Sequence record: OZ346222.1
Source: a phage
Strand: one strand, 5' to 3'
Length of the DNA stretch: 64,000 nucleotides
A model generated the notes under the pieces. That model ran no database searches. It was not told where the DNA came from and saw nothing but the letters and a program-made list of their open reading frames with translations. Positions 14,717-29,610 of the stretch are shown piece by piece (position 1 is the first letter of the stretch; each line of letters begins with the position of its first letter). The position numbers and the translations under genes were made by a program.

Positions 14717-15042
14717 CAGAGATCATCATTTCAACTGCAGGGTATGTGTTCCTGACAATCATTGCACTGACCATTCTGGTGGTGGTATATGGAATTGTTA
14801 TTCTCCCTATTCTTGAGACAATTAGTTTGTGTCGGTGTTGGAGAAAGGCTTACGGTCCACAGCCGTGGAAGGACTGGCCCCACCTGGTGCACATAGCGTT
14901 CTCTTATGCTTATGATCACGCCAGCAGTGCATGCATAACCGGGTATCACGCCCACAACTGGAGCTGGGAAGGGTTGAGGAAATGGAATGTTACAAAGACC
15001 ATACCTCTGCGCATGTACAAACCTAAAAACAAAGACAGCTGA
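14713..15042 (+). CDS. membrane protein (109 aa)
   Basis: N-terminal hydrophobic segments; ATGA overlap. Confidence 0.45.
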   Translation: MTEIIISTAGYVFLTIIALTILVVVYGIVILPILETISLCRCWRKAYGPQPWKDWPHLVHIAFSYAYDHASSACITGYHAHNWSWEGLRKWNVTKTIPLRMYKPKNKDS

Positions 15043-15071
15043 TACTTGAAAATCCCTGGCATATCAAGTGT

Positions 15072-15110
15072 AAGGAGGATTTCTAAAATGGATTTCCTCC
15101 TTTTGATATT
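15072..15110 (+). terminator. rho-independent terminator
   Basis: AAGGAGGA ... TCCTCCTT hairpin followed by T-rich run. Confidence 0.5.
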
Positions 15111-15355
15111 TCACCGGGCCAGATATTTTAAAATTCTTAGAAAATCAGAAAATGGATCGAAAACTAAAATGGATTTTTCAAGACAGGCACGATAAGATGT
15201 GCTGCTCATTCTATCGTTCGCACCGTACTTTAAGTCACTATTCCAGATTTTTCCGCACATACTCTCACCCTTCTACCAGAACTTTCCCAGCTTACCTCTG
15301 ACCTTTTATAACAATAAGTCCATTATTATCAGAAAGTTTCGGCACATCTCTTTCG

Positions 15356-15550
15356 GTACTCGATCTGTTTTTCATTTCAAAGACCTGATTTTCTGAAAAT
15401 TTTTCTCGATAAATTTCTTAGTACTCGATCTGTTTTTCATTTCAAAGACCTGATTTTCTGAAAATTTTTCTCGATAAATTTCTTAGTACTCGATCTGTTT
15501 TTCGTTTTCTGAATCGGATTTTCTGGAAATCGTTCCAGCTCTCGACCTGA
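15356..15550 (+). repeat. tandem direct repeat, about 65-bp unit, 2 perfect copies plus 1 degenerate
   Basis: GTACTCGATCTGTTTTTCATTTCAAAGACCTGATTTTCTGAAAATTTTTCTCGATAAATTTCTTA repeated head-to-tail; within a 1.1-kb ORF-poor island. Confidence 0.8.
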
Positions 15551-15744
15551 AATTTTTGGGGACGAAATCGATTTTTCGTTTTCAGAAATGGATTTTTAAA
15601 ATTTCTATATGGGAATATTTTATGGGATACTGTTTTATAGGAAATTGTTACGGAGGGTAATTAGCATGCTAATTAAATTTATTAAATGCGAGGAGTTCTC
15701 ATTTAGAATTTTGAATGATAATCATTCTCGTTTGCAGAATAACG

Positions 15745-15915
15745 GGCAGGCCCGGTGATTGTCTCCCGGCCCCTACTGCCCCGGCTTGTTATTATAGTAT
15801 CACACAGGACAAAGAAAGCAAGGATTTTTTGCATAAATTTTTAAATGATAATGATAACCGTTCTCATTTTATGCAGCGCCCATCCCCGGTGGTTGTCTCC
15901 CCCGTCACCGGTGCC
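15745..15915 (+). repeat. GC-rich dispersed repeat pair (GGCAGGCCnGGTGATTGTCTCCC-like)
   Basis: Two related copies about 150 bp apart, each preceded by GATAAT ... TGCAG; inverted copy at 25520-25545. Confidence 0.5.
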
Positions 15916-16123
15916 TGCCGTCCTTTCGATAGGTATATCGTGCCACCTGGCGGGGCCGCTGTCAACACTTTTCAAAAAATTTTTCTAACCTGATGCGCTA
16001 ACCGCTGCAACCTGGCGGGGTCAGCCTGGCAGGACCTAACTGACCGGGTAGGAGAGAATGAAGGCTTGTAAACCTGGTGGGCCTATGCTACAGGATAGGT
16101 AACAATTGAAGAGGAGGTACAAA

Positions 16124-16297
16124 AATGAAAGGTAATATGATCCCCCTAGAAAATGTAGCTATTAATGACGCTGAGGCTATCGCCCTGGTTGAAAAGGCTA
16201 TGGCGGGAGCGTTGGAACATAAAGAAGAGTACGAAAAATGGTGGTTAACCTGGCGGGGGCGGCAGGTGGATTCTATCATAAAAATAATTTAAAATAG
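16124..16297 (+). CDS. hypothetical small protein (about 57 aa)
   Basis: ATG 5 nt after GAGGAGGT; below ORF-track threshold; hand translated. Confidence 0.35.
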
Positions 16298-16300
16298 TCG

Positions 16301-16328
16301 TTGACAACAAGGTTAATCATGGTATTAT
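16301..16328 (+). promoter_or_regulatory. sigma70-type promoter
   Basis: TTGACA, 16-bp spacer, TATTAT. Confidence 0.5.
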
Positions 16329-16378
16329 TACCCTACAAGGTGAACAACACCGCACTAACCAGTAAAGAGGATAAATTT

Positions 16379-16576
16379 ATGAACGCATACGGGATCAAAG
16401 TACGTCGCAACACTCGCCAGGTGGTCACCAATCAAGTGATTTGCCGGGTGGATGTAACCATCAACAACGGGCAAGGCCTTTATAAATTTCGTCGCGGTCA
16501 TAGCTATACCCTGCAACAGCTTAATCGTTGCGCCCTGACAAAAGGTCAGATCAACCATTGGTTTAATAAAAAATAA
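16379..16576 (+). CDS. hypothetical protein (65 aa)
   Basis: ATG after GAGGATAAA; ORF-track start at 16301 coincides with the -35. Confidence 0.45.
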   Translation: MNAYGIKVRRNTRQVVTNQVICRVDVTINNGQGLYKFRRGHSYTLQQLNRCALTKGQINHWFNKK

Positions 16577-16579
16577 GTA

Positions 16580-16608
16580 TTGACATACAGTCCGACACCA
16601 AATACACT
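16580..16608 (+). promoter_or_regulatory. sigma70-type promoter
   Basis: TTGACA, 17-bp spacer, TACACT. Confidence 0.5.
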
Positions 16609-16640
16609 AAAAGCACAAAAGACACTAAGAGGATAAAATC

Positions 16641-17039
16641 ATGAAAACCACTACCTTTAATTTTGATAATGCAGACTTTTCTTTTTCTGATGTCAAGAAC
16701 TGCCGCCGTGATCGTGGATTTTACAAGGCTTATAATCTGGTGGGCCTGGACGATGACAATAATTTGCACGAAGTAGCTGAGATCCGGTATTATGCCGCCG
16801 CCAGCGGTAACACTAACTACTGCGTTTTTTGGATACACGACAACAAGAACAATAAGTACGGTTATACTGGTGGCAAGGCGAGCGGTCACGGTTACGATAA
16901 AGCTAATGCAGCACTTGAGAGCGCATTAAATGCTATGGGGATCACTGCCAACGGCTGGATCTATGAAGAAGAGTTTTTGTCGGCACTTGCTGACCACCTG
17001 GGCTATAAAAAGCACATTGTAACATGCGCCCACGAATAA
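16641..17039 (+). CDS. hypothetical protein (132 aa)
   Basis: RBS AAGAGGATAAAATC-ATG. Confidence 0.5.
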   Translation: MKTTTFNFDNADFSFSDVKNCRRDRGFYKAYNLVGLDDDNNLHEVAEIRYYAAASGNTNYCVFWIHDNKNNKYGYTGGKASGHGYDKANAALESALNAMGITANGWIYEEEFLSALADHLGYKKHIVTCAHE

Positions 17040-17045
17040 AAATTG

Positions 17046-17073
17046 TTGACACGCTGCAAAATTCAAGTAAACT
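17046..17073 (+). promoter_or_regulatory. sigma70-type promoter
   Basis: TTGACA, 16-bp spacer, TAAACT; followed by 5' leader hairpin. Confidence 0.5.
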
Positions 17074-17121
17074 AGTCACAAAAGGCGGGAATGTTTCCCG
17101 CCAACACAAAGGAAAAAGATC

Positions 17122-17526
17122 ATGAATAAGAACGTACGCCGCATCATGAACGAACTGGCAAACGATGAAAAAATTATTGACATGCATTTGATCAACATTT
17201 GCCGCCGTTGTGTAACATACAACAACCGCGCCGCAAAAGCGCGTGAGATGAACGCAAAAGGCACCTTAAAGCCATTCCAGGTGGTGGTAAAGGCCATTAA
17301 AGATGTAACTAATACGGCAAACCAGGTACAGGGGAACACCAACGAGAGTACCAATATTGATCCGGCTTACATCATGAAACGGATCCGGACCTGCAAGAAC
17401 AAAGAGCAAGTGTATAATGTCATAGACTGGTTGGATTCTATGGGCGATGTGGTGTACAATAGATTCTCGGCAGCTATTGAGATCCAGCTTGACAGGTTAG
17501 ACGGTAAAGTACTTAAAACTTACTAA
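17122..17526 (+). CDS. hypothetical protein (134 aa)
   Basis: Conserved leader/RBS ACAAAGGAAAAAGATC-ATG. Confidence 0.5.
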   Translation: MNKNVRRIMNELANDEKIIDMHLINICRRCVTYNNRAAKAREMNAKGTLKPFQVVVKAIKDVTNTANQVQGNTNESTNIDPAYIMKRIRTCKNKEQVYNVIDWLDSMGDVVYNRFSAAIEIQLDRLDGKVLKTY

Positions 17527-17533
17527 ATTTATT

Positions 17534-17572
17534 TTTAGATGGCCTTGACTCCAGGGCCATCAATAAAGTAAA
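17534..17572 (+). repeat. promoter-like stem-loop repeat element, copy 1
   Basis: GATGGCC-TTGACTCCAG-GGCCATC hairpin with TTGACT in loop and TAAA(G/T)T about 17 bp downstream; T-run precedes hairpin. Confidence 0.6.
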
Positions 17573-17606
17573 TTAATCTCAGCTAAGCGAAAAAGGGGGC
17601 TTTAAG

Positions 17607-17726
17607 ATGAGCACTACACGCCAATACACAAAGGTAACTATTATCGCCTGCGTTGTCGGTTACATCCTGGCGCAAATGTTAATGAGTAGCGCTAACAGTT
17701 TTGCAAAATTTTTCTTAAATTTTTAA
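17607..17726 (+). CDS. small membrane peptide (39 aa)
   Basis: ATG after AAAAGGGGG; hydrophobic core; below ORF-track threshold. Confidence 0.35.
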   Translation: MSTTRQYTKVTIIACVVGYILAQMLMSSANSFAKFFLNF

Positions 17727-17754
17727 TTGACAAGCTAACTTAGATTGATATACT
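17727..17754 (+). promoter_or_regulatory. sigma70-type promoter
   Basis: TTGACA, 16-bp spacer, TATACT. Confidence 0.5.
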
Positions 17755-17805
17755 TAAACACGTAAACGGGAAAACTTCCCAGAACACACAAAAGGAGAAA
17801 ACACC

Positions 17806-18147
17806 ATGACTACTATGGCCGCCGCAGAAAAAGCTATTCAGATCGCCGCACTGAAAAAACAGATCGCAGACCTTGAGAACAAGATCGATAACTTTGAAAT
17901 CGACGAGGACAAGTACGACGAAAACTATGATGAATGGTTAGACGAGATCTACGGCGAAATTATGATCGGAAACATTTCTTTTCTTCCGTCGCGTATCCTC
18001 AAGGAGCTAGATCCTATCGCTTACCGCTGCGGATTTAGCGACTACATCGACAGCCTGGATATTGAGGACGATGAAGAATACCAGGAATTACAGACAGAGT
18101 TAGAAGAAGCAAAAGAAGAGCTTGCAGAACTGGAAGAAAACGAGTAA
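17806..18147 (+). CDS. hypothetical acidic coiled-coil protein (113 aa)
   Basis: Conserved leader/RBS; Glu/Leu-rich C-terminus. Confidence 0.5.
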   Translation: MTTMAAAEKAIQIAALKKQIADLENKIDNFEIDEDKYDENYDEWLDEIYGEIMIGNISFLPSRILKELDPIAYRCGFSDYIDSLDIEDDEEYQELQTELEEAKEELAELEENE

Positions 18148-18154
18148 GATTATT

Positions 18155-18193
18155 TTTAGATGGCCTTGACTCCAGGGCCATCAATAAAGTAAA
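18155..18193 (+). repeat. promoter-like stem-loop repeat element, copy 2
   Basis: Near-identical to 17534-17572. Confidence 0.6.
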
Positions 18194-18236
18194 CTTTATA
18201 CTGTTAACACTGAACTAATGCATAGGAGTTAAAACC

Positions 18237-18482
18237 ATGGCAGCACTAATCACCAAATATTATGCCCCTACCAACACCAAAAGCGCCCGTATCATGGTAA
18301 AAGGCTTCGGACGTAAAAAGGTGTACACCTGGGATTATGCCTTAGACACGGAAGACAACTACACCAACGCGATGACCGATTTTATTAATGATCTGAACAC
18401 GCGGATCTTGACAAATTATAAAATTACCGATATTGCCTATATAGGGGAAGGCGGGATCTGTTTTGTCGGTATCGTCAAATAA
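18237..18482 (+). CDS. hypothetical protein (81 aa)
   Basis: RBS TAGGAG. Confidence 0.45.
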   Translation: MAALITKYYAPTNTKSARIMVKGFGRKKVYTWDYALDTEDNYTNAMTDFINDLNTRILTNYKITDIAYIGEGGICFVGIVK

Positions 18483-18485
18483 GCT

Positions 18486-18530
18486 GTTTTTTCGGTGGTC
18501 CTGGTAGCAGGGCCATCTATAAAGATAGTT
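18486..18530 (+). repeat. promoter-like stem-loop repeat element, divergent copy 3
   Basis: GGTCCTG ... CAGGGCC hairpin with G.U, followed by ATCTATAAAG. Confidence 0.4.
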
Positions 18531-18557
18531 TATCAATACAATGAAAGGAGAAAGTAC

Positions 18558-18911
18558 ATGATCAGCGGGGCAAGTTTTATTATTGGCGCTATTGCTACGG
18601 CTTTAATTGTAAACAAGATCCAATCTAAAAACGAAAAAGATAGCAACGCCCTTACAGAATACCCGTTTTGGGTATTCAACGACAATGAAGACTATATTAT
18701 CAAGTACAAGAATGAGAAGGGCGACCAGGTAACACCGCGACCGATCCCGGCTTACAAGATGCAAGAAACACTATACCGCCTAAAGGCTGGAGGCGCAAAA
18801 ATCGTAGACTTTTGGGGATACGATCACACAGATCAGGAAGTTATAAAGCGCCGTATCCGGGCTATTCAGGCCAATATTGAAGTTAGCAAGGGGGGAATAT
18901 ATGAAGATTAA
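18558..18911 (+). CDS. membrane-anchored protein (117 aa)
   Basis: ATG after AAAGGAGAAAG; N-terminal TM helix. Confidence 0.45.
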   Translation: MISGASFIIGAIATALIVNKIQSKNEKDSNALTEYPFWVFNDNEDYIIKYKNEKGDQVTPRPIPAYKMQETLYRLKAGGAKIVDFWGYDHTDQEVIKRRIRAIQANIEVSKGGIYED

Positions 18912-19098
18912 TTTTGAGAAGATTGTAAAGCGATCTCATGCTTCCGAAGAGCTGCCGGAACGCCGCCAGCGCAACAATAAACTGAATAAGCCAAAAAGAT
19001 TTGGGAAGATCTGGCGGAATCATTATGATCGCAAATTACCGGGCCTGCTTTTGGAACGTGAACGACAGGCGGAACGATACCGCCACAAAGGCAAATAA
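18901..19098 (+). CDS. hypothetical basic protein (65 aa)
   Basis: ATG after AAGGGGGGAA; overlaps upstream stop. Confidence 0.4.
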   Translation: MKINFEKIVKRSHASEELPERRQRNNKLNKPKRFGKIWRNHYDRKLPGLLLERERQAERYRHKGK

Positions 19099-19106
19099 CA
19101 ACCAAC

Positions 19107-19135
19107 GCCCCGCCATTGTGCGGGGCTTTTTATTT
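19107..19135 (+). terminator. rho-independent terminator
   Basis: GCCCCGC ... GCGGGGC hairpin followed by TTTTTATTT. Confidence 0.65.
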
Positions 19136-19256
19136 CTATCCTACGAATAGCGCCCCTGGTTGGCCCTGTAAGCGCCAAAAAGGCCCCACCTATGCAATCG
19201 CCCACCTTTAACCTGAAAACATCGCTTAGGGCCGTTTTATGGCGTTAAAAATATCA

Positions 19257-19307
19257 TTGACAGTGATTTTATTTAAAGCTTGACATCTTAAACAGGTTAG
19301 CTATACT
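19257..19307 (+). promoter_or_regulatory. sigma70-type promoter with tandem -35 hexamers
   Basis: TTGACA at 19257 and 19280; 16-bp spacer; TATACT. Confidence 0.5.
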
Positions 19308-19341
19308 AACCACATCAAAGAGAGAGAAAGGAGTAAACGCC

Positions 19342-19602
19342 ATGCGTAAATTAAAAAATTTTGATAAAGTTGATGTTGTCCTGAATAATTTTTACTACTG
19401 CAACAACAAGGCCATTTGGTGGCGTGATAGTTCCACCGATAAAGTCAAGGCGCGCTTTCTCCAGGGGCACTGGCAAGGCCGCCCAGTGATTAAAATCATG
19501 GGGCAATTGGTAGCGTTTAAAAATTGCCGCCGTGTTGATGACGTTGAAGAGATCTTGAATATTTTACGCCACAATAATTTAAAAAATAGTGTTGACAAGT
19601 AA
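19342..19602 (+). CDS. hypothetical protein (86 aa)
   Basis: RBS AAAGGAG. Confidence 0.5.
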   Translation: MRKLKNFDKVDVVLNNFYYCNNKAIWWRDSSTDKVKARFLQGHWQGRPVIKIMGQLVAFKNCRRVDDVEEILNILRHNNLKNSVDK

Positions 19603-19619
19603 ATCTCAATAAGTATACT
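19592..19619 (+). promoter_or_regulatory. sigma70-type promoter
   Basis: TTGACA, 16-bp spacer, TATACT; followed by GCGGGAAGTTTTCCCGC leader hairpin. Confidence 0.5.
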
Positions 19620-19676
19620 TAAGCACACAGGCGGGAAGTTTTCCCGCCACTAACAAAGAAAATAGGAGAAAATATC

Positions 19677-20300
19677 ATGACCACCGTTAACATTACCACA
19701 GGTTGCAATTTATCTTTCGACGTGCTGACCGACGAACAAAAAGAAAAAGCTGTTGAAATGGTCCGCGAAAGAGAAGAACACAGCGGGGATAACTTTTTTG
19801 CAGAAAGTGTAATTGAATACTATAAAGAATATGTTTTTCCAGAGTACGGGCTTGAAGATACCAAGGTACAGTGGTCCGGCTTTTGGTGTCAAGGCGACGG
19901 CGCATCAATTAGCGCTGAAAATGTAAACTTAGAAAAATTCTTGCGTAAGGTTAAAGCGCTTACAAAATTTCGCTCAATTAGACACTTGTTCGGCACAATG
20001 CACGATGGCGAACTATCAGCCAGCGTTGAACGTATCCCGTTTAGCCATTATCATCACGAAAACACAATAGGCGGGTGCATCGATACCAACTGGCTAGACC
20101 TGACCACCAAGCAAGAGGATAAAATTGAAGAGCTGGAAGAGCTGATCACCGAGACGGTACGGGAGCTATCCCGCAAGGTTTACGTAGACCTGGAGCAGGC
20201 CTATCTTGAACAATTCACTACCGAAAACCTGATCGGCCTTATCGAGGCCAATGATTGGCGGTTTGATGTGGATGAGTATGGCGAGATGACTTTTTCATAA
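19677..20300 (+). CDS. hypothetical protein (207 aa)
   Basis: Conserved leader/RBS. Confidence 0.5.
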   Translation: MTTVNITTGCNLSFDVLTDEQKEKAVEMVREREEHSGDNFFAESVIEYYKEYVFPEYGLEDTKVQWSGFWCQGDGASISAENVNLEKFLRKVKALTKFRSIRHLFGTMHDGELSASVERIPFSHYHHENTIGGCIDTNWLDLTTKQEDKIEELEELITETVRELSRKVYVDLEQAYLEQFTTENLIGLIEANDWRFDVDEYGEMTFS

Positions 20301-20308
20301 ATAAAGTG

Positions 20309-20336
20309 TTGCAATAACCTAAAAACCTGCTATATT
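20309..20336 (+). promoter_or_regulatory. sigma70-type promoter
   Basis: TTGCAA, 16-bp spacer, TATATT. Confidence 0.45.
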
Positions 20337-20389
20337 AAAACTCAAGGGGCAAGACGTTTGCCCCCACACAAAACAAAGAGGAAAACATC

Positions 20390-20770
20390 ATGAAAAACAC
20401 TACTAAAGCTATTGACACCGTTATGTTTAACCTGGTTACCTTTCGCGAGGATATGAAAGATCTTCCACGTGAAACAGTGTGCGATCACATTGAAAACTAT
20501 CGCAAACTAATCAAAGAGTTGCCTTTAAAACGTGACCAGTATGCGGCTAACGCCATGCTTAATGCCATGATCAAAAAGATGATTCAGTGTGATTTAACTC
20601 TGGCCTATGACTATGCGGGTGGTCGTTTTGCAGTATACAATCAGCCCGTGCCCGGTATGGGCACCACCGAAGAATTGCACGCGCTCAATCTAAAACAAGA
20701 CGTATGGGATAACATGCCCCGCGTGGTGGTGTGGGCAGAAAGCGGAAAGATTTACGGCGATAATTTTTAA
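20390..20770 (+). CDS. hypothetical protein (126 aa)
   Basis: Conserved leader hairpin plus RBS. Confidence 0.5.
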   Translation: MKNTTKAIDTVMFNLVTFREDMKDLPRETVCDHIENYRKLIKELPLKRDQYAANAMLNAMIKKMIQCDLTLAYDYAGGRFAVYNQPVPGMGTTEELHALNLKQDVWDNMPRVVVWAESGKIYGDNF

Positions 20771-20780
20771 TCAGGTAACA

Positions 20781-20806
20781 GGCGGCATATTTGCCGCCTT
20801 ATTGTT
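20781..20806 (+). terminator. rho-independent terminator
   Basis: GGCGGCA ... TGCCGCC hairpin followed by T-rich run. Confidence 0.55.
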
Positions 20807-20834
20807 AAACAGAGTTGCAAAAGAGGTACATAGA

Positions 20835-21206
20835 ATGGAATTTATTATTTTGGCTGTAGTAGTTGCCTTGTTCAACGCCTGGATCGCTGGCAAGATGGGT
20901 AGATCCGCCTTTTTATGGTTTATTATATCTATTTTCCTGGGGGTGGTTGCAACTATTGTACTTGTTATCCTTGCAATTGTTGACAAGGGGAATAATAGAA
21001 AGGGTAAAGTATTTTCAGACCTGTACGACGCTCAAACGTTTGTCAACGCCTATTATAGTGATCTTCCAGTCTCCCTACGCTGCAGCCTGGCACAACAAGT
21101 TTTCGATGAGGCTAAAACCAGAGATCAAGCCCATGAGATATGTTTAACTGAGGCGGATCGCCTATTTGAGAGGAATAGAAAATATGTGGGCCAACCGTTT
21201 AAATAA
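20835..21206 (+). CDS. membrane protein (123 aa, two predicted TM helices)
   Basis: ATG after AAAGAGG; hydrophobic N-terminal half. Confidence 0.45.
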   Translation: MEFIILAVVVALFNAWIAGKMGRSAFLWFIISIFLGVVATIVLVILAIVDKGNNRKGKVFSDLYDAQTFVNAYYSDLPVSLRCSLAQQVFDEAKTRDQAHEICLTEADRLFERNRKYVGQPFK

Positions 21207-21429
21207 TGCCACGTTAATTAATCCCTTTAGTGAAGATTTGAAGCCAGCCGCCTGGCGTGATGGATTCAATAACGAACGCTTTATTTTCAAGCCTGATCTT
21301 GAGGAATTTTATAACAATGGATCGAACAACAGCGGAGATAATTTTTCTTGGGATGTGCGTGGTGATGGTACTCCTGGGGGCCATTGTAAACCACGTCACT
21401 ACTACCAGGAGGAAAGAGGGAGACGATGA
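21184..21429 (+). CDS. hypothetical protein (81 aa)
   Basis: ATG after GAGGAA; alternative overlapping frame (21257..21442) also open. Confidence 0.3.
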   Translation: MWANRLNNATLINPFSEDLKPAAWRDGFNNERFIFKPDLEEFYNNGSNNSGDNFSWDVRGDGTPGGHCKPRHYYQEERGRR

Positions 21430-21549
21430 CAACCAAGGATAAGCCCCGTACCGATAAGGCGCGCCGGGTTATGGTATGGCTTGAGATCATCGCCCTTGAA
21501 ATATTGCTAGGCGTAGGGATGTACTTTATCGCTGTAAGTAACTAAGAGC

Positions 21550-21578
21550 GGCCCCCGATCATGGGGGCCTATCTTTTA
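21550..21578 (+). terminator. rho-independent terminator
   Basis: GGCCCCCGATCATGGGGGCC hairpin followed by TATCTTTT. Confidence 0.6.
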
Positions 21579-21599
21579 AAAAATTTTTCTTCCGGGGTG

Positions 21600-21627
21600 T
21601 TGCAATCCGGTCCGGAATGTGGATAAT
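21600..21627 (+). promoter_or_regulatory. sigma70-type promoter
   Basis: TTGCAA, 16-bp spacer, GATAAT; similar to element at 22763. Confidence 0.45.
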
Positions 21628-21683
21628 AACAATCAACGGGGAGCTAATCCCCACCACCACAAAAACCAGAAAGGAGAAACAAA

Positions 21684-21884
21684 ATGAGCAACAATATCCG
21701 CGTTATTAACTTCAAAAAAGAAGAAAAAATTGCCGTGCTGATTGACGGTCAAGAAATCTTCAAGGGCGACTATGAAGATCATCAAACGGCGATTAGTATC
21801 ACTCGCGTGATTGGTTATCATAATTTCTACCCCCAAGGCGCTGAGGCAGCAGTTAAACGAATCAAAGAGATTGTAGGCCTGTAA
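21684..21884 (+). CDS. hypothetical protein (66 aa)
   Basis: Conserved leader/RBS. Confidence 0.45.
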   Translation: MSNNIRVINFKKEEKIAVLIDGQEIFKGDYEDHQTAISITRVIGYHNFYPQGAEAAVKRIKEIVGL

Positions 21885-21891
21885 AATTTAT

Positions 21892-21931
21892 TTTTAGATG
21901 GCCTTGACTTCAGGGCCATCGATAAAGTAAA
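21892..21931 (+). repeat. promoter-like stem-loop repeat element, copy 4
   Basis: GATGGCC-TTGACTTCAG-GGCCATC; near-identical to copies 1 and 2. Confidence 0.6.
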
Positions 21932-21977
21932 TTTAAACCCTGTTAAAATACCACGCAGTTAACAAGGAGTGATAGAC

Positions 21978-22277
21978 ATGTTTATCCAGGCTAATAATCT
22001 TTATTTCTTTGATGGTCAGATCGTAGATGGTGTGGAAGTGGAGATCACCGGGTGCCCTGGCGGTCAGGCTATGACTTTTCGGAATAATGCCTTTGATGAT
22101 TCTCATATCGTTATGAGAATGGAAGTTACGAAGCTGGACGACAAGAAAACACTTATTGACTATTCTGTGAAAGATCATCCAGACTACCGCATGATCCATG
22201 GTGATTTGTGCATTGTTGACCGTGACAAGGTGGGCGGCATTGTGATCGCTATTGTGAACGATGTTTTCTCAAACTAA
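21978..22277 (+). CDS. hypothetical protein (99 aa)
   Basis: ATG 8 nt after AAGGAG. Confidence 0.45.
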   Translation: MFIQANNLYFFDGQIVDGVEVEITGCPGGQAMTFRNNAFDDSHIVMRMEVTKLDDKKTLIDYSVKDHPDYRMIHGDLCIVDRDKVGGIVIAIVNDVFSN

Positions 22278-22294
22278 TTTCAGCAGGCGATTTT

Positions 22295-22645
22295 ATGAAA
22301 GTCAAACTATATTACCTTAATGAGCTTAACCCCCTTGCCCAGGTCCGCGCCCTAGCTAATACCTTGATTTGTGAGAAATCTGTATATTGTGTTGAGCTTA
22401 ACGCCATGCGTGAACGTCTCAAAGGTGGTTACTTTGACATCCATGCTGCAATCAACGGCCTGAATATGGAATTTATACGCTTACGTAACAGCCGCCGGAA
22501 TCTGGCAAGAATGGAACAAGATCCGGCCCACCTTCGTAAGCTGGTTATTGAAAATCATCTGATGTTTAATGCCGAGGGTGATTATTACCATTTTCACCGC
22601 AAACGCTGGTACCGTGGCGGCAATACAGGCAAGAATGCAAAATAA
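22295..22645 (+). CDS. hypothetical protein (116 aa)
   Basis: In gene array; followed by hairpins. Confidence 0.45.
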   Translation: MKVKLYYLNELNPLAQVRALANTLICEKSVYCVELNAMRERLKGGYFDIHAAINGLNMEFIRLRNSRRNLARMEQDPAHLRKLVIENHLMFNAEGDYYHFHRKRWYRGGNTGKNAK

Positions 22646-22680
22646 GGCCCCTAGCAGGGCCTGCAGCAATATAATCACAT

Positions 22681-22714
22681 AAAGGCCATGCGGTTGCATG
22701 GCCTTTATTATTTT
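22681..22714 (+). terminator. rho-independent terminator
   Basis: AAGGCCATGC-GGTT-GCATGGCCTT hairpin followed by T-rich run. Confidence 0.6.
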
Positions 22715-22762
22715 GGCGTTACAACGGCATACGGGGCGCTTAAAAAATTTTTAAAGAAGTAC

Positions 22763-22790
22763 TTGCATCATTCCCGACAATATGGATAAT
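22763..22790 (+). promoter_or_regulatory. sigma70-type promoter
   Basis: TTGCAT, 16-bp spacer, GATAAT. Confidence 0.45.
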
Positions 22791-22847
22791 AAGAGTTGTC
22801 GAGGGGGAGGCCCCCAATCGTTGACCAGATAGATAGGAGTTAAAATC

Positions 22848-23132
22848 ATGGCTATTGTTACCGCTGGCGATGTAGTAGAAATGGAAGCAAAATACTTAAA
22901 AGCGGGTATGCACATCCTACGGAATGATCAAGAGCTATTATTAACGATGGTTGACTATAATCACGGCCAGGATTATCCAAGCATCGACTACTTTTTTGAG
23001 TATGTTGATGAAGAGTTGAAAGAGGATGAGGCCTATTGCGGTGAGTTCTGCAACTTCTTTTGTCCTGATGAGGTTGTAAAGGTTATTTATCAACCTGGCG
23101 TAGCTTTCCCGCTGCACGCTATCAATAAATAA
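22848..23132 (+). CDS. hypothetical protein (94 aa)
   Basis: RBS TAGGAG. Confidence 0.5.
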   Translation: MAIVTAGDVVEMEAKYLKAGMHILRNDQELLLTMVDYNHGQDYPSIDYFFEYVDEELKEDEAYCGEFCNFFCPDEVVKVIYQPGVAFPLHAINK

Positions 23133-23187
23133 ACCTGGCGGGGCCGAAAAGGCCCCCAATTATGAAAATAAAGAGAGGCAAATCATC

Positions 23188-23421
23188 ATGATGGAACAAA
23201 TTAAACGCGCCGAGGCTATTAATGGCAACGTGATCTATTTTGTCAGCAAAAACGAAAAAGGCGTACCATATGCGGCAGTAATAGTACAACCTGACGGCGA
23301 TTATTGGTTTACTGTGTACGGCGCTTATTCTTTTGGGCGTCCAGTGCATGATAAAATTTTGAAAGTAGCGAACCCTACCGGGAAGAATATCACAGCAGAA
23401 AAATTTTTTGAAAATAGTTGA
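23188..23421 (+). CDS. hypothetical protein (77 aa)
   Basis: RBS AGAGAGG. Confidence 0.45.
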   Translation: MMEQIKRAEAINGNVIYFVSKNEKGVPYAAVIVQPDGDYWFTVYGAYSFGRPVHDKILKVANPTGKNITAEKFFENS

Positions 23422-23445
23422 CATGACCATATAAGACTGTAATAT
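23418..23445 (+). promoter_or_regulatory. sigma70-type promoter
   Basis: TTGACA overlapping stop codon; 16-bp spacer; TAATAT. Confidence 0.5.
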
Positions 23446-23496
23446 ATAAATCAAAGGGGGCAACGAACCCCACCAACTACAAAGAGGATAAAAATC

Positions 23497-23676
23497 ATGG
23501 CTATTATTGCAAAGACTGAGATCATAGGCTTAGATTCTATTCTCCTCGCATATGAGGAAGCTATAGAAATGTATGTGGTTTCCTATGGTGAGTATATCCG
23601 TGAATATAAATCTATTGATCTGGCTTTTGAATGTTATATCCGCCAGGTTAATAAAGCGTACGATGATTATCGTTAA
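23497..23676 (+). CDS. hypothetical small protein (59 aa)
   Basis: Conserved leader/RBS; below ORF-track threshold. Confidence 0.4.
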   Translation: MAIIAKTEIIGLDSILLAYEEAIEMYVVSYGEYIREYKSIDLAFECYIRQVNKAYDDYR

Positions 23677-23682
23677 AATAGT

Positions 23683-23711
23683 TTGACAACAGCCATCTTA
23701 CAAAGCATAAT
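23683..23711 (+). promoter_or_regulatory. sigma70-type promoter
   Basis: TTGACA, 17-bp spacer, CATAAT. Confidence 0.5.
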
Positions 23712-23763
23712 ACATAAGGCGGTGGAATGGTCCGCCACCTGGAACAAAGAAGAGGTAAACACC

Positions 23764-24009
23764 ATGAAAAGCAATAAAGGTTATAACGGTTACAAAAACA
23801 AAACTCATTGGAATGTAAGCCTTTGGATTAATAACGATGAGTCATTGTACCGGTTGGCCCAAGGCTTTATTAACGCCAATGCTAATCGTAATGATGCGGC
23901 GCGGGATATGATGCTTTTTCTGGAGCTAACCGGACAAGATAAGACCCTGGACGGCTTCAAGTACAGCACTACGGCGATCCGTGCCGCGATGGTTGGAATG
24001 AAACACTAA
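23764..24009 (+). CDS. hypothetical protein (81 aa)
   Basis: ATG after conserved AGAGGTAAACACC leader. Confidence 0.45.
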   Translation: MKSNKGYNGYKNKTHWNVSLWINNDESLYRLAQGFINANANRNDAARDMMLFLELTGQDKTLDGFKYSTTAIRAAMVGMKH

Positions 24010-24086
24010 AAGCACATAGCTGCCTTACCCTGGGGCTGTGGTAGCGGCCCCATGAATAAGGTTACTAACAGAAGAGAATAAACACC

Positions 24087-24191
24087 ATGAAACAGAAATT
24101 AATCGATGCAGTGATCTTGGTTATTGCCCTGGGTATTGGCCTGATTGCAACCATGTCTAATATGATCTTGTCTTCCAACGGTATCGGGTGA
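24087..24191 (+). CDS. small membrane peptide (34 aa)
   Basis: ATG after AGAGAATAAACACC; single hydrophobic helix; hand translated. Confidence 0.3.
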   Translation: MKQKLIDAVILVIALGIGLIATMSNMILSSNGIG

Positions 24192-24200
24192 GGTTGGCAA

Positions 24201-24416
24201 ATGATCACTAACAAAACAGGCAAAACGGAATTTTTACGCAACTTACAGATCGGCAAGCCTGAGATCTGGTACTGCACTAAAACACCGCGTGACGAAATGA
24301 AAGACTTCACCGCCACGCTGCAACGGGTAAAGATATCTATCACGCAGAAAAAGGCCTTACTAGTGGTGGAAGGGGAGATCCCCCAAACCGTTGTTATAGT
24401 TGATCGTACAGCATAG
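24201..24416 (+). CDS. hypothetical protein (71 aa)
   Basis: RBS GGTGAGG. Confidence 0.4.
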   Translation: MITNKTGKTEFLRNLQIGKPEIWYCTKTPRDEMKDFTATLQRVKISITQKKALLVVEGEIPQTVVIVDRTA

Positions 24417-24507
24417 TTTAATTTATACAGATACCTGAAAATTAACCAACAAAGCATAAACAGGCGGTTACCGCCGCCTTAAACGTAGCAGAAAGAGGAT
24501 AGGCACA

Positions 24508-24792
24508 ATGAAAAAGATGATCGCAGTGGTTACCCTGGTTGTTGGACTTAATGCGCCTGTAATGGCTAAAGAGCTGGCAAAAGAGGTTAATCTAACGGAT
24601 ATTCATGCCGTCAATCAAATCGGGGTTACTTATCGCTTATGCCTTGCCGCTAAAACTTTTAAGGACGGCACAACAGAGTACTACGGATTCGAGGGTATCC
24701 GGTGCGGTGAGCTTGCTCGCGACCTTAAGGAAGATCCAGACCTGGAGGATCTGCCCATAACCGTGAACGGGAAAACTTACGTGAACCGTTAA
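24508..24792 (+). CDS. secreted/periplasmic protein (94 aa, N-terminal signal peptide)
   Basis: MKKMIAVVTLVVGLNAPVMA signal-like N-terminus; AGAGGATAGG RBS. Confidence 0.45.
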   Translation: MKKMIAVVTLVVGLNAPVMAKELAKEVNLTDIHAVNQIGVTYRLCLAAKTFKDGTTEYYGFEGIRCGELARDLKEDPDLEDLPITVNGKTYVNR

Positions 24793-24794
24793 CC

Positions 24795-24929
24795 ATGAGA
24801 AAGATAATTATTACCATGGGGATCGTGGCGGCAATGTTGGCGATCTTTCCCTTTATGGTTAGGTATGTGCTGATTAATGTTGTCCTGGTAGTCAGCGATC
24901 TGGTGTTATATATTAACTCATTGTTTTAG
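24795..24929 (+). CDS. small membrane peptide (44 aa)
   Basis: Hydrophobic throughout; hand translated. Confidence 0.3.
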   Translation: MRKIIITMGIVAAMLAIFPFMVRYVLINVVLVVSDLVLYINSLF

Positions 24930-24937
24930 GCGCGATA

Positions 24938-25129
24938 ATGACAGCGGAAGAAGTTAAAAAAGTACTGGCGGTACTGCGTTATCATAATCATTGCAAGGTG
25001 AAGAATGATCCTGATTATCTTGATTCATCCCTTGAAGAGGATACACTACAAGCCATAAGCAACATGCAAGAATTGCTTAAGCGTATGACAGAGAAAAACC
25101 GACCGGACTACATAGGGGGTAAAATATGA
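24938..25129 (+). CDS. hypothetical protein (63 aa)
   Basis: In gene array. Confidence 0.4.
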   Translation: MTAEEVKKVLAVLRYHNHCKVKNDPDYLDSSLEEDTLQAISNMQELLKRMTEKNRPDYIGGKI

Positions 25130-25437
25130 TCGCTATTACGCCAACCGTTTTAGATTGGTATCGGCAACGCATAGCGCCTCCGCTGGCTATCTTCAAAGAT
25201 GCGGAAGCAAAACAACGCCGGATCTCAATACATGAGATCATCAACCTTAACGCTGGAGGCACACCATACCGCCCAGGACCTGGCCGTGAGATGGACAATA
25301 CATTGGCGATCCTGAAGATACGCCGTAAACGGTCCTCCCTTACGCTGGATTCATTACACACAATGCAGTCTCCGTTCCAGGTGACTGGGAAACGGATCGC
25401 CAGGTCCTGGACAAAGGCCAATGACCGGACCGTATAA
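25126..25437 (+). CDS. hypothetical protein (103 aa)
   Basis: ATGA overlap with upstream gene. Confidence 0.4.
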   Translation: MIAITPTVLDWYRQRIAPPLAIFKDAEAKQRRISIHEIINLNAGGTPYRPGPGREMDNTLAILKIRRKRSSLTLDSLHTMQSPFQVTGKRIARSWTKANDRTV

Positions 25438-25572
25438 ATAAAAAGTGTTTTGGTACTGATTTTGGGGTTGACTTGTTCGGCCCCTTTTGCTATTCTTATT
25501 AAACGGGCGGCACTTGGGAACAGGGGGAGACAATCACCAGGCCTGCCTGTCATATAAGAACTATAAAAACCG

Positions 25573-25601
25573 TTGACATCTGCCAGGGGGTGGGGTAACA
25601 T
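25573..25601 (+). promoter_or_regulatory. sigma70-type promoter
   Basis: TTGACA, 17-bp spacer, TAACAT; followed by leader hairpin. Confidence 0.5.
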
Positions 25602-25655: not shown

Positions 25656-25928
25656 ATGTCAAGCTGGATTAATCAAGAAGTCGAATCACGTTTTAATGCT
25701 ATTTGGGATCTCATCGAAAAAGAAGACGGCACATCAAGCCCCTACCTCAACAATTTGGAATTCCATTTTGTGGAAGCGATGAACGCAGAACATGATCACG
25801 AAGGTGGTGCGGACGAGTTCGCTAAAGGGTATGGCTTCAACAATGCCAACGAAATGATCGAGGCGGTTGTACTCCAGGCTGAGGAAGATTATCAATTAAA
25901 AACGCTTGAATTCTGCCGCCGCAAGTAA
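25656..25928 (+). CDS. hypothetical acidic protein (90 aa)
   Basis: Conserved leader/RBS. Confidence 0.5.
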   Translation: MSSWINQEVESRFNAIWDLIEKEDGTSSPYLNNLEFHFVEAMNAEHDHEGGADEFAKGYGFNNANEMIEAVVLQAEEDYQLKTLEFCRRK

Positions 25929-26834: not shown

Positions 26835-26860
26835 AAGGGGCTTAGGCCCCTTTCTTTTTG
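26835..26860 (+). terminator. rho-independent terminator
   Basis: AAGGGGC-TTAG-GCCCCTT hairpin followed by TCTTTTT. Confidence 0.6.
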
Positions 26861-27477
26861 TCTGCTCTTCCCCCTACCATAAACGGCCCTACCTGGCAAG
26901 TGGAATAATTGACGAGCCATCAATCCCACACACTGTACAAATATACATGTAAAATAACTATTGCATAACCTTTCATTGTGTGGTAGCGGTGCTATTTTTT
27001 ACCTGTTTTCCTTCCAAAATTGCACGTAATGCAGCTATTGCACAAAATTTAACCTGATGCACATCTCCAATATCCTGTCAACAACTAAAAATCTTTATAA
27101 GTCATACACTTACACAGCATCGAAAGCGTGTTCTACGCGAAAAATCGAGTATAACTATAGCCGCCAGATCTCAGAATTCACGTACGCACGCCATTCTATA
27201 GCCTGCAAAGTATTTATTCCAACCACAGAATAACGGAATAGTCAATACCTGAATAAAATAATTATTCGTTTAAACTGCATAACATAAATCAGCTCAGGTG
27301 TCAACATTTTTCGTAAACAGTCTGAAATTGTCACTGTGAGTTATCATAAACAGAGAAATCTTTAGTCGTATAATGTTTACTGTACGTTACTATACTGACT
27401 GGAATCATTAGATGACTAATAGAAAGATAAGAAATAATTAACAATACAATTATTTTACCTGTAACAATAAGACAACT

Positions 27478-27726
27478 ATGCAAACGAATGGCATGGCGCG
27501 ACGGAGTCGCGACATAATATAAAAGCAGTAACCATCACCCCCGTGATGGTTTGTCTGCAATCTATTAATCAGATCATAGTTGCCTTGTATTCAGTTAATC
27601 ATGACATAATAAGCAAGGCAACTATAGATCTGCTAATAGTTGCCCTGCTTTTATATTATGTCATATATTATTAACTTGTTAATTGTTAACTTGCTAATTG
27701 TTTTCATGCAAACGAATGTCATGGCT
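27478..27726. repeat. palindrome-rich module flanked by 21-bp direct repeats
   Basis: ATGCAAACGAATG(G/T)CATGGC at 27478 and 27706; perfect 18-bp inverted repeat GACATAATATAAAAGCAG / CTGCTTTTATATTATGTC (27510/27645); 12-bp inverted repeat CATAGTTGCCTTG / CAAGGCAACTATG; several short hairpins. Confidence 0.75.
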
Positions 27727-27734
27727 TATCCTAT

Positions 27735-27805
27735 CTGTGTAAACAGTTAAGGTGTAAACTATCCAGGCGTAAACAGTCTATGCGGGAACAATCTATACGT
27801 GAACA
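27735..27805. repeat. iteron-like array of GT(A/G)AACAG octamers
   Basis: GTAAACAG / GTAAACTA / GTAAACAG / GTGAACAG spaced 10-20 bp; further copies near 27313, 28078, 28790. Confidence 0.6.
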
Positions 27806-28357
27806 GTGAAACATGAAATAATAACAGTCGTTATTGTGTCGAAAGTGTATAAGGTGTCAGACAAGTTTTTCTCCTCTTTGTCAAGTGCTGCATGAAAAAT
27901 TTACAAGCTTGTATGGTAGCATTTTTGCGGCCCTGTTTACATTCAGCGATGTATGTATAATCCTTGTTGTGTGGGCGTTTAGACGTCTAGACGGTCAGAA
28001 GTCTGCAGGTTAATACCTAATCTATCGGCTGCTAACTATATCCCACACAAATAGTAAGAAATATAATTGTTATGTGCGTAAACAGTAACTCATGTTATCA
28101 ATCCCTGTATGTATCGCCAGTGGTGCGCATAATGGGTATTATGTTAAATTGCCCGTAATGATAACTATTCTCACAATGATAGGTATTCTCATTCACTCCC
28201 ACAAGATAGGTTGCAAATGTTGTGCCACTGTGTGAACGGCCTAACCTATTAATTTGCCTCACTGCCTCGATATTTGAGAATTGTTATAAGAATGAGAAGT
28301 ATTCCCATTTCGTCCGCCTGGCAGCACTCCAGTCGCTACCGCTCATGACAGGGCAGA

Positions 28358-29610
28358 ACTAGACCCTCTTCAGATATTTCTGGCTGACTCTTCAGGTCTG
28401 TGTGGGAAAAGCCAACCTCTCCGGCGGCGGGGAGGGGGTCAATTAAAAAAAATTACGTGGTGCATGAAGCGCTCTTCAGGTAAGGCATGTGTTATGGGAT
28501 GAAACCCTCTTCAGGCAATGATATTTGTGGGTGTGATATTTGCTGGAAAGCCAGATATGACGGGACTCCTGGCGGGGCAGGGGTAGTACAGACAGGGAAA
28601 ATATGGGGGATGTAGTTGGGGAAATTGATCAGACAGGTAGAGTATGGAATATGTTACAAGTATGTTAAATAGGGAGGATGAATATCTGCAGGATTTGTGT
28701 GTAAAATCAAAGACTTAAGTGGTGTTGTGGTATTTTCTATAAATAATTCAAGTTTAATAGGTAATATTTGTCTCTATCCACTTTGTGTGGTAAACAGATT
28801 CAGATGAAATTGGTTTACAAGTGTATACATAATATACAAATTAAAGATACAAGAAACCCCCCTCCCCCTTCGGCTACCATTCACCTTTTCCTCTGACTGG
28901 TACTTAAACACTTATTCAGACTCTTCAGGTTATCACCCATATATCATATGGCAGTGACTGGTGTCCTCCGGCCCCTCTTTCGTCACCCGTCCGCTTCGCC
29001 ATGCTAATGCCATAGCCAATGGTTCGGTTGTTCACTCTGTTCACTCAGGTGTATCTCCATACCCCTTCAAACCGAAGAGAACAGAAAACCCGAATTACTC
29101 GGTAAAAGAAAAGAGAAGAACTTAATTTTATCAGGATAGGCAAGAATGTCAAGGCATGACTGCTCACTAAACAAGCAAACAGTCATGTGTGGAAGGTAAG
29201 TGATTGTGGTGGTGGGAAATTTAGTTGAAAGATGTGTTATAGGTGCGCTTCCAGCACTTTGGCCGGGCAGCTAATTGTGTGTCAGTCCAGCGGTTCATCC
29301 TCTACTTCACTGAAATCAATGTTCATGGTCTCCTCCCAACCATCGATCTCAGCACAAGAGTGGAGTTCTTTAGGGTTTACTCCCAAAGCCTCAGCAACAG
29401 AGTCTATATTTAACACCTCTGGCAGGTATGATTCATCGAATTCAAGGTAAATCAGGCCACGAGTGTTGTCAGCTCCACCAAATATCTCTATCTTCATGAA
29501 ATCTCCTCTGGAAATGAGAGTGTGAACAGGGTTTTATACGTTCTAATGCACAGGAATTATACACGTTTGCCTCTTCAGGCCATGCTTTAGCATGAGGAAC
29601 CTGTGTGGGC
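28358..29610. repeat. dispersed CTCTTCAG(G) motifs, often followed by TGTGTGGG
   Basis: Six copies on the same strand (about 28358, 28388, 28465, 28505, 28918, 29567) within a G/T-rich non-coding stretch. Confidence 0.6.
29282..29497 (-). CDS. hypothetical acidic protein (71 aa)
   Basis: Last gene of leftward block; begins MKIEI like several paralogs. Confidence 0.45.
   Translation of the reverse strand: MKIEIFGGADNTRGLIYLEFDESYLPEVLNIDSVAEALGVNPKELHSCAEIDGWEETMNIDFSEVEDEPLD

Follow-up and report, generated by a model that had tools for sequence, protein, structure and literature searches.

In the genome of an rV5-like coliphage, a GC-rich 20-mer would form the conserved core of a promoter-leader cassette that occurs three times per genome with a fixed geometry. 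The window studied here is the whole stretch of 64,000 nucleotides taken from sequence record OZ346222.1, and positions are counted from its first letter. In each cassette, a sigma70-type early promoter would be followed by a G-rich initial transcribed region of about 45 nt, with the motif at about +20 to +45, and then by one to four palindromes of the Fur-box type, starting exactly 21 nt past the core. We can best describe this arrangement of promoter, leader and Fur box as one of known parts that is previously undescribed and deeply conserved; full-text literature searches found neither Fur boxes nor small RNAs described for Vequintavirinae. We suggest, and consider about as apt to be right as wrong, that it is an early promoter-leader cassette gated by host Fur, situated beside an iteron-rich, origin-like non-coding region.

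Three conserved copies of a GC-rich core

The GC-rich motif is confirmed to be real and non-random. Its core, GGTGATTGTCTCCC, occurs as copy A at 15754-15767 (plus strand, exact), copy B at 15888-15901 (plus strand, one mismatch) and copy C at 25525-25538 (minus strand, exact). These are three matches against 0.42 expected, a number that was reached in 1 of 100 shuffles. Over an extended 23-mer, GGCAGGCCnGGTGATTGTCTCCC, copy A and the reverse complement of copy C agree at 22 of 23 positions. A GC-rich 20-mer repeated in both orientations had been noticed in an earlier reading of the letters alone (hereafter the sequence-only reading), and this much is borne out, with coordinates correct within 3 nt. 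That reading also spoke of dispersed motifs and asked for a genome-wide scan. The scan recovered A, B and C and no further copies, and "dispersed" does not describe a family with only three members per genome. The count rests on a regular expression and on an nhmmer profile of 16 leaders (E values of 1.5e-15 for A, 2.7e-5 for B and 3.6e-12 for C), whole-genome coverage being provided by the window combined with positions 1-100,000 of the related phage EdH4.

Judging from similarity, the window is that of a Vequintavirus, an rV5-like coliphage: positions 15000-17000 are 92-94% identical to the Escherichia phages EdH4, Alma and Gotham and to about 110 other Vequintavirus (rV5-like) genomes. All three copies are kept in EdH4, naswa, JEP1 and the IMG/VR contig L245. 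Gotham and L117 cover the region in part, with copies A and B, and so does L244 with copy C.

In more distant phages, a sensitive BLAST search with 15690-16125 found that 15696-15770 alone is retained, at 80-89% identity, with flanks that cannot be aligned. These phages are Certrevirus phiTE, Seunavirus GAP31, Mydovirus, Phapecoctavirus and an Aeromonas Plateaulakevirus. In the Cronobacter phage GAP31, a second, inverted cassette with its own Fur box lies 9.4 kb from the first and is followed by an AT-rich segment and a terminator hairpin, as at copy C of the window. By this context it is the ortholog of copy C, and the box that it keeps is the one that has decayed at copy C in Vequintavirus. 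Copy C itself resembles a chimera, its 3' half coming from A and its 5' half from B. No second inverted copy was found within +/-12 kb in W70 and TH18, an 11-mer match in TH18 being at chance level. An exact 14-mer scan of IMG/VR recovered only two relatives, and nearly all of its matches were chance ones in recurrent prophage-like coding sequence. A host origin of the element was rejected, as 5,426 E. coli genomes gave no significant match.

Copies A and B lie within a 1.1-kb stretch (15043-16124) without credible open reading frames (ORFs). The rV5 genome paper marks a "non-coding" block on its genome map and leaves it without interpretation. GenBank records of relatives place one to four "hypothetical proteins" across 15043-16124 (Gotham F10B_0202, JEP1_099, EdH4_00029 and EdH4_00030), and the largest of these, at least, is not a conserved ORF. 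ORF 15715-15993 (92 codons), which spans copies A and B, had rightly been called spurious, for the frame stays open over only 40 codons in EdH4, 7 in L245 and 13 in L072. A mini-ORF peptide, MRMIIIQ, was also rejected: it is the Fur box translated, and in-frame stops precede it in dw-ec, ZCKP1 and L245.

Predicted promoters, leaders and Fur-box-type palindromes

Promoters of the sigma70 type were scored 5' of the motif on both strands for 26 motif copies from 15 genomes and six genera, the maximum score being 13. On the GAGACAA-sense strand, the best match in 22 of the 26 copies was a promoter scoring 7.5-12, with 27-31 nt from the end of its -10 hexamer to the core (37 nt for B). For EdH4 copy A, dw-ec and ZCKP1 the scan preferred a site further upstream, and equivalent hexamers can be read in the leaders at the standard distance. 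On the other strand, the one in which the sequence-only reading had given the motif, the best sites score 6-8.5 and lie at distances of 12 to 65 nt. The hexamers vary by genus (TTGCAA-17-TATATT, TTGATC-16-TATTAT, TTGACA-17-CATAAT, TTGACT-17-TATTCT) and their position is constant. Since they differ among genera and yet hold their position, selection on promoter function is likely. Given the position and strand of these promoters, the motif would be transcribed, most likely within the initial ~50 nt of a transcript read from the minus strand for A and B and from the plus strand for C. The transcribed sense is GAGACAAYCACC, the reverse complement of the version first reported.

Hexamers 16-18 bp apart at a conserved position are found for all three copies and in six genera. 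P_A (15791-15821, minus strand) consists of -35 TTGCTT (15821-15816) and -10 TACTAT or TATAAT (15799-15791). Promoter-like hexamers stand at its position in all Vequintavirus copies, and other genera have better versions at the same distance (TTGCAA-17-TATATT, TTGATC-16-TATTAT). P_B (15937-15965, minus strand) joins TTGACA (15965-15960) and CACGAT (15942-15937) by a 17-nt spacer; relatives have TTGACA-17-CACAAT or CATAAT, and other genera have TTGACA-17-TATAAT or TATACT with a GC-rich hairpin inside the spacer. Both P_A and P_B score under the threshold of a stricter promoter scan. P_C (25468-25496, plus strand), TTGACT-17-TATTCT with a TG extension, partly coincides with the hairpin (25464-25484) that terminates the upstream gene; an independent scan lists it too, and relatives have TTGCAA-16-TATACT at its position. 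The rV5 supplement does not list these promoters. A TTGACA-17-TAACAT promoter is present at 25573, downstream of copy C.

All three leaders are GC-rich. Leader A (15744-15785, minus strand; core 15754-15767) reads ...GGGGCAGUAGGGGCCGGGAGACAAUCACCGGGCCUGCCC in RNA sense. Leader B (15876-15923, minus strand; core 15888-15901) has a 5' part homologous to copy C of relatives. Leader C (25505-25551, plus strand; core GGGAGACAATCACC at 25525-25538) lies 5' of promoter 25573 and ORF 25656-25928. What is conserved is the linear pattern GAGACAAaCACC-N6-TGCcCG-N-ATTC, followed by the box, with GGGAGACAAYCACC-N6-TGCC as the invariant part of the leader. On the RNA strand 25 of 26 leaders contain more G (15-23) than C (9-17). 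The core is similar to the regions in which the phage itself initiates translation, GGAGAAAACACC-ATG, that is, a Shine-Dalgarno box with its spacer; AAACACCATGA is found four times, and no start codon was found 3' of the core. The ordinary early mRNAs of the phage start alike, with a promoter, a short A-rich stretch, a GC-rich segment and then GGAG-AAACACC-ATG.

A small structured RNA family had been offered as one meaning of the motif. Neither a consensus fold nor an excess of covariation nor a match in Rfam speaks for it. For both strands, the consensus that RNAalifold gave has next to no structure (-1.22 and -0.85 kcal/mol; four and three pairs). In a hand-drawn two-helix model 62.1% of cells are paired, against 62.1% in shuffled columns, with no excess covariation, and its covariation score was equalled by 92 of 500 shuffles. 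Single sequences do not fold clearly more stably than their shuffles (z from -0.4 to -2.9). A hairpin model was rejected as well: stems can be drawn for each sequence, but their register shifts across genera and the model fails the covariation tests. Rfam 15 at gathering thresholds matches only a group I intron in the window, and permissive Rfam scans of 15600-16140 and of the GAP31 element returned noise only (E>4). Because the fold and covariation tests are negative, the conservation is one of primary sequence. The leader would be recognised as a linear RNA or DNA sequence rather than as a hairpin.

The most informative context of the motif, which the sequence-only reading missed, is a set of adjoining palindromes. 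They were compared with the 19-bp Fur consensus GATAATGATAATCATTATC or the 7-1-7 repeat TGATAATnATTATCA. Next to copy A, 21 nt from the core, stands A2, AATGATAATCATTCTCGTT (15714-15732), with one mismatch to the palindromic form AATGAKAATNATTMTCATT. Beyond it stands A1, AATGCGAGGAGTTCTCATT (15685-15703), a distal Fur-like palindrome with a good half-site on the right side only; in GAP31, phiTE and dw-ec the second box occupies the corresponding position. Copy B has two overlapping sites of the Fur-box type, AATGATAATGATAACCGTTCTCATT (15844-15868), after a 19-nt gap, and the one at 15847 agrees with the Fur consensus at 16 of 19 positions. At copy C, the position expected for a box (25560-25578, 21 nt past the core) holds the decayed ACTATAAAAACCGTTGACA, which overlaps the -35 of promoter 25573; the orthologous inverted copy of GAP31 retains a box, AATGAGAATTACTATCAAC, with a 21-nt gap. 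Of the 16 unit-1 copies scanned, 15 have 21 nt between core and box, as does the other GAP31 copy; the gap is 19 nt in the remaining one, that of L072, and also in copy B.

These palindromes match the Fur consensus and occur above chance and in non-coding DNA. The form AATGAKAATNATTMTCATT has seven matches in the window against 0.25 expected, and six of the seven are inside two ORF-free regions, the exception, at 24800, being the weakest. Positions 1-100 kb of EdH4 add only a 3-mismatch site inside a gene. In most genera the proximal box is AATGAGAATGATTATCATT, which is identical at 18 of 19 positions to the Fur operator of E. coli ryhB, AATGAGAATGATTATTATT. The ryhB promoter, whose Fur operator is established, was our positive control, and it matches the AATGAKAATNATTMTCATT pattern with one mismatch. 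Like many Fur-regulated promoters, the phage loci have tandem and overlapping arrays. Distant loci share a layout of iterons, one to four copies of the 19-bp palindrome AATGAGAATCATTCTCATT and the GC-rich element. An exact 16-mer, AATGATAATCATTCTC, is found in more than 118 IMG/VR contigs with a GC content of 21-59%; 80% of its occurrences are not in long ORFs, and in 59% two or more boxes stand within 400 nt.

Arrays of Fur-type palindromes are seen in the non-coding DNA of many unrelated uncultivated phage contigs (IMG/VR L126-L243). Some of them adjoin clusters of DnaA boxes (L208, L141, L165), and the array of L127 lies just 5' of the terminase small-subunit gene.

Downstream of cassettes A and B in RNA sense, a 65-bp tandem repeat of 2.3 copies (15356-15507) contains CTCGATC iterons, which could be initiator-binding sites. 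The iteron core is also present in phiTE, GAP31 and an Aeromonas phage. The iterons (GGTCTCGATC or TACTCGATC, each with GATC) precede Fur boxes in phages of Escherichia, Pectobacterium, Cronobacter and Aeromonas; the loci are 15356-15507 of the window, L122, L123, L124 and L253. A perfect 18-bp palindrome, TAATTAGCATGCTAATTA (15658-15675), lies 10 nt from the distal Fur-like box and is kept in L245 and L117.

Proposed Fur gating and the alternatives to it

If the cassette is indeed gated by Fur, A and B would fire leftwards (minus strand) into the Fur boxes and then into the iteron-rich ORF-free region. Cassette C would fire rightwards ahead of promoter 25573 and ORF 25656, its Fur box having been lost in Vequintavirus. 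Host Fur-Fe2+ bound at about +55 to +100 might gate the transcripts by acting as an attenuator or roadblock. Under iron scarcity, more leftward transcripts would then reach the iteron/origin-like region, and transcription from the second GAP31 cassette into the early genes downstream of it would rise as well.

A broader suggestion can also be made, and it is a tentative one that we would sooner doubt than accept. Strictly lytic rV5-like phages, and many unrelated phages, may have made Fur, the iron sensor of the host, part of a conserved control region in non-coding DNA, through near-consensus operator arrays 21 nt from the leader core. Fur would in this way gate strong early transcription into origin-like iterons, or be titrated as the phage genome amplifies. 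If this is true, early transcription and replication of the phage, or iron uptake by the host, would be tuned to the iron available in the gut.

Several points weigh against gating by Fur. All promoters and start sites are predictions; P_A is mediocre in Vequintavirus (TTGCTT-16-TACTAT), the -10 of P_B is weak (CACGAT), and no ORF lies downstream of cassettes A and B. Classical Fur boxes overlap the -35/-10 region, and beside that placement a roadblock formed by a box at +55 is unusual. Counted from the strong conserved promoters, the phage boxes lie at ~+55 to +100; the only promoter that they overlap is a weak and poorly conserved one on the opposite strand. This weak convergent promoter, TTGAAT-18-CAGAAT, overlaps the box in about half of the lineages, and Fur might act on it instead. 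In Vequintavirus, copy C is without a Fur box, and since it works in this state, the leader core must have a role independent of Fur. The diverse IMG/VR contigs show no single preferred position of the box relative to predicted promoters. The ryhB-type operators also differ from the phage sites in context: here the boxes are ~55-100 nt downstream of the best conserved promoters, they belong to a strictly lytic phage, and they adjoin non-coding DNA, not an iron gene. Past the box there is no meaningful similarity to RyhB; identity over only 10-12 nt in one phage (z=3.1) was treated as chance.

Of the alternatives, the one that survives best, although we think it unlikely, is that a protein of the phage or of the host binds GGTGATTGTCTCC as double-stranded DNA. 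Such a protein might act with Fur two helical turns away, or might shut off the three promoters from downstream. An operator near promoters was the first suggestion of the sequence-only reading. The association with promoters holds, but for A and B the conserved promoters are on the opposite strand, and the core, at about +20 to +45 inside the transcript, is not placed as a classical upstream operator would be. A DNA-level operator stays in play because primary sequence is conserved at a fixed spacing: there is no covariation, the distance to the Fur box is exactly 21 bp, and that from -10 to core is fixed as well. Yet the motif lacks symmetry, and its neighbourhood yielded no candidate for a regulator, the flanking small proteins having no informative Pfam domain and a single match, to DUF7170. 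The 13-bp core is kept in six genera on different hosts, and the factor binding it would have to be equally conserved. With the core inside the transcribed region, a role at the RNA level is at least as likely.

The nutL/nutR sites of lambda and the putL/putR sites of HK022 offer a further comparison. They too are few in number, lie just 3' of early promoters in the same orientation to the promoter, and are mutually inverted. Unlike the nut sites, the phage leaders have no boxA/boxB that can be seen by eye, and unlike for put, no fold with two stems is supported in them. These phages are not known to have an N-like protein.

It is considerably less likely that cassettes A and B are primer or activator promoters of a replication origin. 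Their transcripts would be the same as under Fur gating and would differ in purpose: the G-rich RNA would nucleate an R-loop, the AT-rich palindromes would be the unwinding element and the CTCGATC iterons would bind an initiator. Consistent with this are the 1.1-kb ORF-free setting, the conservation of GATC-containing iterons across genera, the excess of G over C in nearly all leaders (the 25 of 26 given above), a local reversal of GC skew, the position of the region, which belongs to the replication-gene arm and lies downstream of the gene for DNA polymerase, and the same palindromes beside DnaA boxes in some IMG/VR contigs. The oriF/oriG origins of T4 and RNA II of ColE1 likewise combine a promoter for host polymerase, a G-rich transcript and an AT-rich segment, as is seen here in a non-coding region with iterons. 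In the phage, however, the AT-rich segment is a sequence-specific palindrome of the Fur type, whereas an unwinding element needs AT-richness and not 18 of 19 identities to a Fur operator; and copy C sits between ordinary early genes. No initiator protein was identified, and the rV5 authors were unable to locate an origin from skew.

An improbable reading, at best on a par with the origin, is a small RNA repressed by Fur on the strand in which the motif was first reported. It would start near GGGCAGG from the box-overlapping promoter TTGAAT-18-CAGAAT, and its seed, GGUGAUUGUCUCC, would pair with the ribosome-binding sites GGAGACAAUCACC; it would also be antisense to the leaders of the opposite strand and to copy C. 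The Fur box lies exactly across the -35 and spacer of this promoter, an arrangement known from classical genes under Fur repression, the consensus ribosome-binding site of early genes and leader C (22 of 23) are complementary to the seed, and L072 has a good promoter there (TTTAAA-18-TATATT). But the -10 is not conserved: CTGAAT, CGGAAT and CAAAAC are without the essential A at position 2, and in BIS47, L167, phiTE, the second GAP31 copy and L163 it is lost. Promoters on this strand score 6-8.5 at variable distances, and copy C of Vequintavirus has neither box nor promoter on it. Nor does a terminator follow. A rho-independent terminator (a GC-rich hairpin with a loop of 3-8 nt and a U-run directly after it) was found on neither strand of 15600-16140, and the one near C is the separate hairpin at 25464-25484. 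As regards the features of Hfq-type small RNAs, a promoter and a conserved linear core are present, A and B are without a terminator, and C continues into a gene.

Other identities were tried and rejected. A ToxI-like mimic, such as the pseudo-ToxI of phiTE, was looked for with the 36-nt ToxI repeat as query; even with 10 substitutions allowed, neither the window nor the loci of phiTE, GAP31, dw-ec and Aeromonas matched it. A sigma54 promoter (-24/-12), Chi, CRISPR-repeat mimicry, an ArgR box and an IHF site were checked by eye only and dropped.

The promoter-early-stem-loop (PeSL) cassettes of T4-type phages occur in both orientations in the region of small early genes, and they are described as substrates of within-genome recombination, not as deeply conserved elements. 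They are reportedly (Arbiol et al. 2010) cassettes of short intergenic repeats, each an early sigma70 promoter with a GC-rich stem-loop. Stem-loops of ACCTGGCGGGG, a second GC-rich sequence of the window, are found in promoter spacers and at gene ends, which resembles PeSLs; the three leader copies differ from PeSLs in being conserved in sequence across genera at a fixed spacing to the Fur box. That the cassettes are merely duplicated promoters and 5' untranslated regions, spread by recombination between such stem-loops and with a fossil ribosome-binding site for a motif, is very improbable: the likeness of the core to the phage's own Shine-Dalgarno box and spacer, the chimera-like copy C (3' half of A, 5' half of B) and the recurrence of ACCTGGCGGGG stem-loops at gene boundaries would fit, but core, 21-nt spacing and box are 80-89% identical across subfamilies whose neighbouring genes cannot be aligned, and a neutral remnant does not behave in this way.

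With this analysis, predicted promoters, leader core, Fur-type operators and iterons take the place of the hypothetical-protein calls of many GenBank records, in an architecture conserved from Escherichia phages to those of Pectobacterium and Aeromonas. Among nutritional signals, host iron status is the dominant one in the gut as well as during infection. If Fur binds, phages widely used for biocontrol and therapy would sense the iron status of their host, and their efficacy in vivo could differ from that in rich medium. Even without Fur, the cassette would be a conserved landmark for annotating and engineering Vequintavirinae genomes.

Stem-loops, the second ORF-free region and other features of the window

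The recurrence of the second GC-rich sequence, which had been reported along with the 20-mer, was found again, with coordinates within 3 nt. ACCTGGCGGGG is exact at 15945, 16010, 16248 and 23133 and has one mismatch at 28567, all on the plus strand; five matches compare with 0.35 expected, and 0 of 100 shuffles reached five. The copies are ordinary GC-rich boundary stem-loops, and their shared sequence is probably due to duplication. The first (15945-15955) is inside the spacer of P_B, its reverse complement forming part of TTGACA-gcggCCCCGCCAGGTgg-CACGAT. The second (16010-16020) is the 5' arm of a hairpin, ACCTGGC...GCCTGGC, and matches the variable hairpin of a "module 2" found in other genera. 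The third (16248-16258) is in the 3' end of ORF 16125-16292, in the hairpin ACCTG-GCGGGGGCGG-CAGGT, 40 nt before a promoter at 16301. The fourth (23133-23143) comes right after the stop of ORF 22848-23132, in the hairpin GGGGCC-GAAAA-GGCCCC. The mismatched copy, TCCTGGCGGGG (28567-28577), is in the second ORF-free region.

"Module 2" is about 110 nt long (e.g. L123 1635-1745) and is carried by L122, L123, L125, L252, L253 and L259-L262. It consists of ACCGGCGATCCACCTTCCRACC, a variable hairpin ACCnGG..CCnGGT and then AYGTTAGCCCCGCCTTTWCGCCGTGGGGWGGCG, and a near-consensus minus-strand promoter with a GC-rich hairpin as its spacer follows. The hairpin stem has compensatory changes of length and sequence, and the module has no Rfam match. 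Copy B of the window may be its diverged counterpart.

The second and larger ORF-free region (26850-29230) lies at a strand-switch point. It contains repeats of the GTAAACAG type (27740-27810), five CTCTTCAG repeats, long inverted repeats and three further Fur-like palindromes at 28157, 28175 and 28291. The GenBank record of EdH4 begins within this region. Elsewhere, a repeat of at least 22 nt, TTATTTTTAGATGGCCTTGACT, occurs three times on the plus strand (17529-17560, 18150-18181 and 21888-21919). Because its 3' end is the -35-like TTGACT, it may be another repeated promoter cassette of the early region.

The sequence-only reading had set the GC-rich motifs in an otherwise AT-rich genome. This is contradicted by an overall GC content of ~43%, or 36-47% per kilobase, only the local non-coding stretch being lower (38%). 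Sixteen GenBank records titled "Campylobacter phage" (A142, A141, C2, D1 and others; ~135-141 kb) are 92-97% identical to this E. coli Vequintavirus region, and these are probably mislabelled or contaminant genomes. No tRNA or tmRNA was found within the window. A group I intron (Rfam RF00028, 64.7 bits, E=4e-14) at 6468-6703 interrupts the DNA polymerase I gene. It starts at the end of ORF 4054-6483 (809 aa), and the C-terminus of DNA polymerase I is encoded by ORF 6751-7107 (118 aa); in EdH4 the gene is a single ORF of 925 codons.

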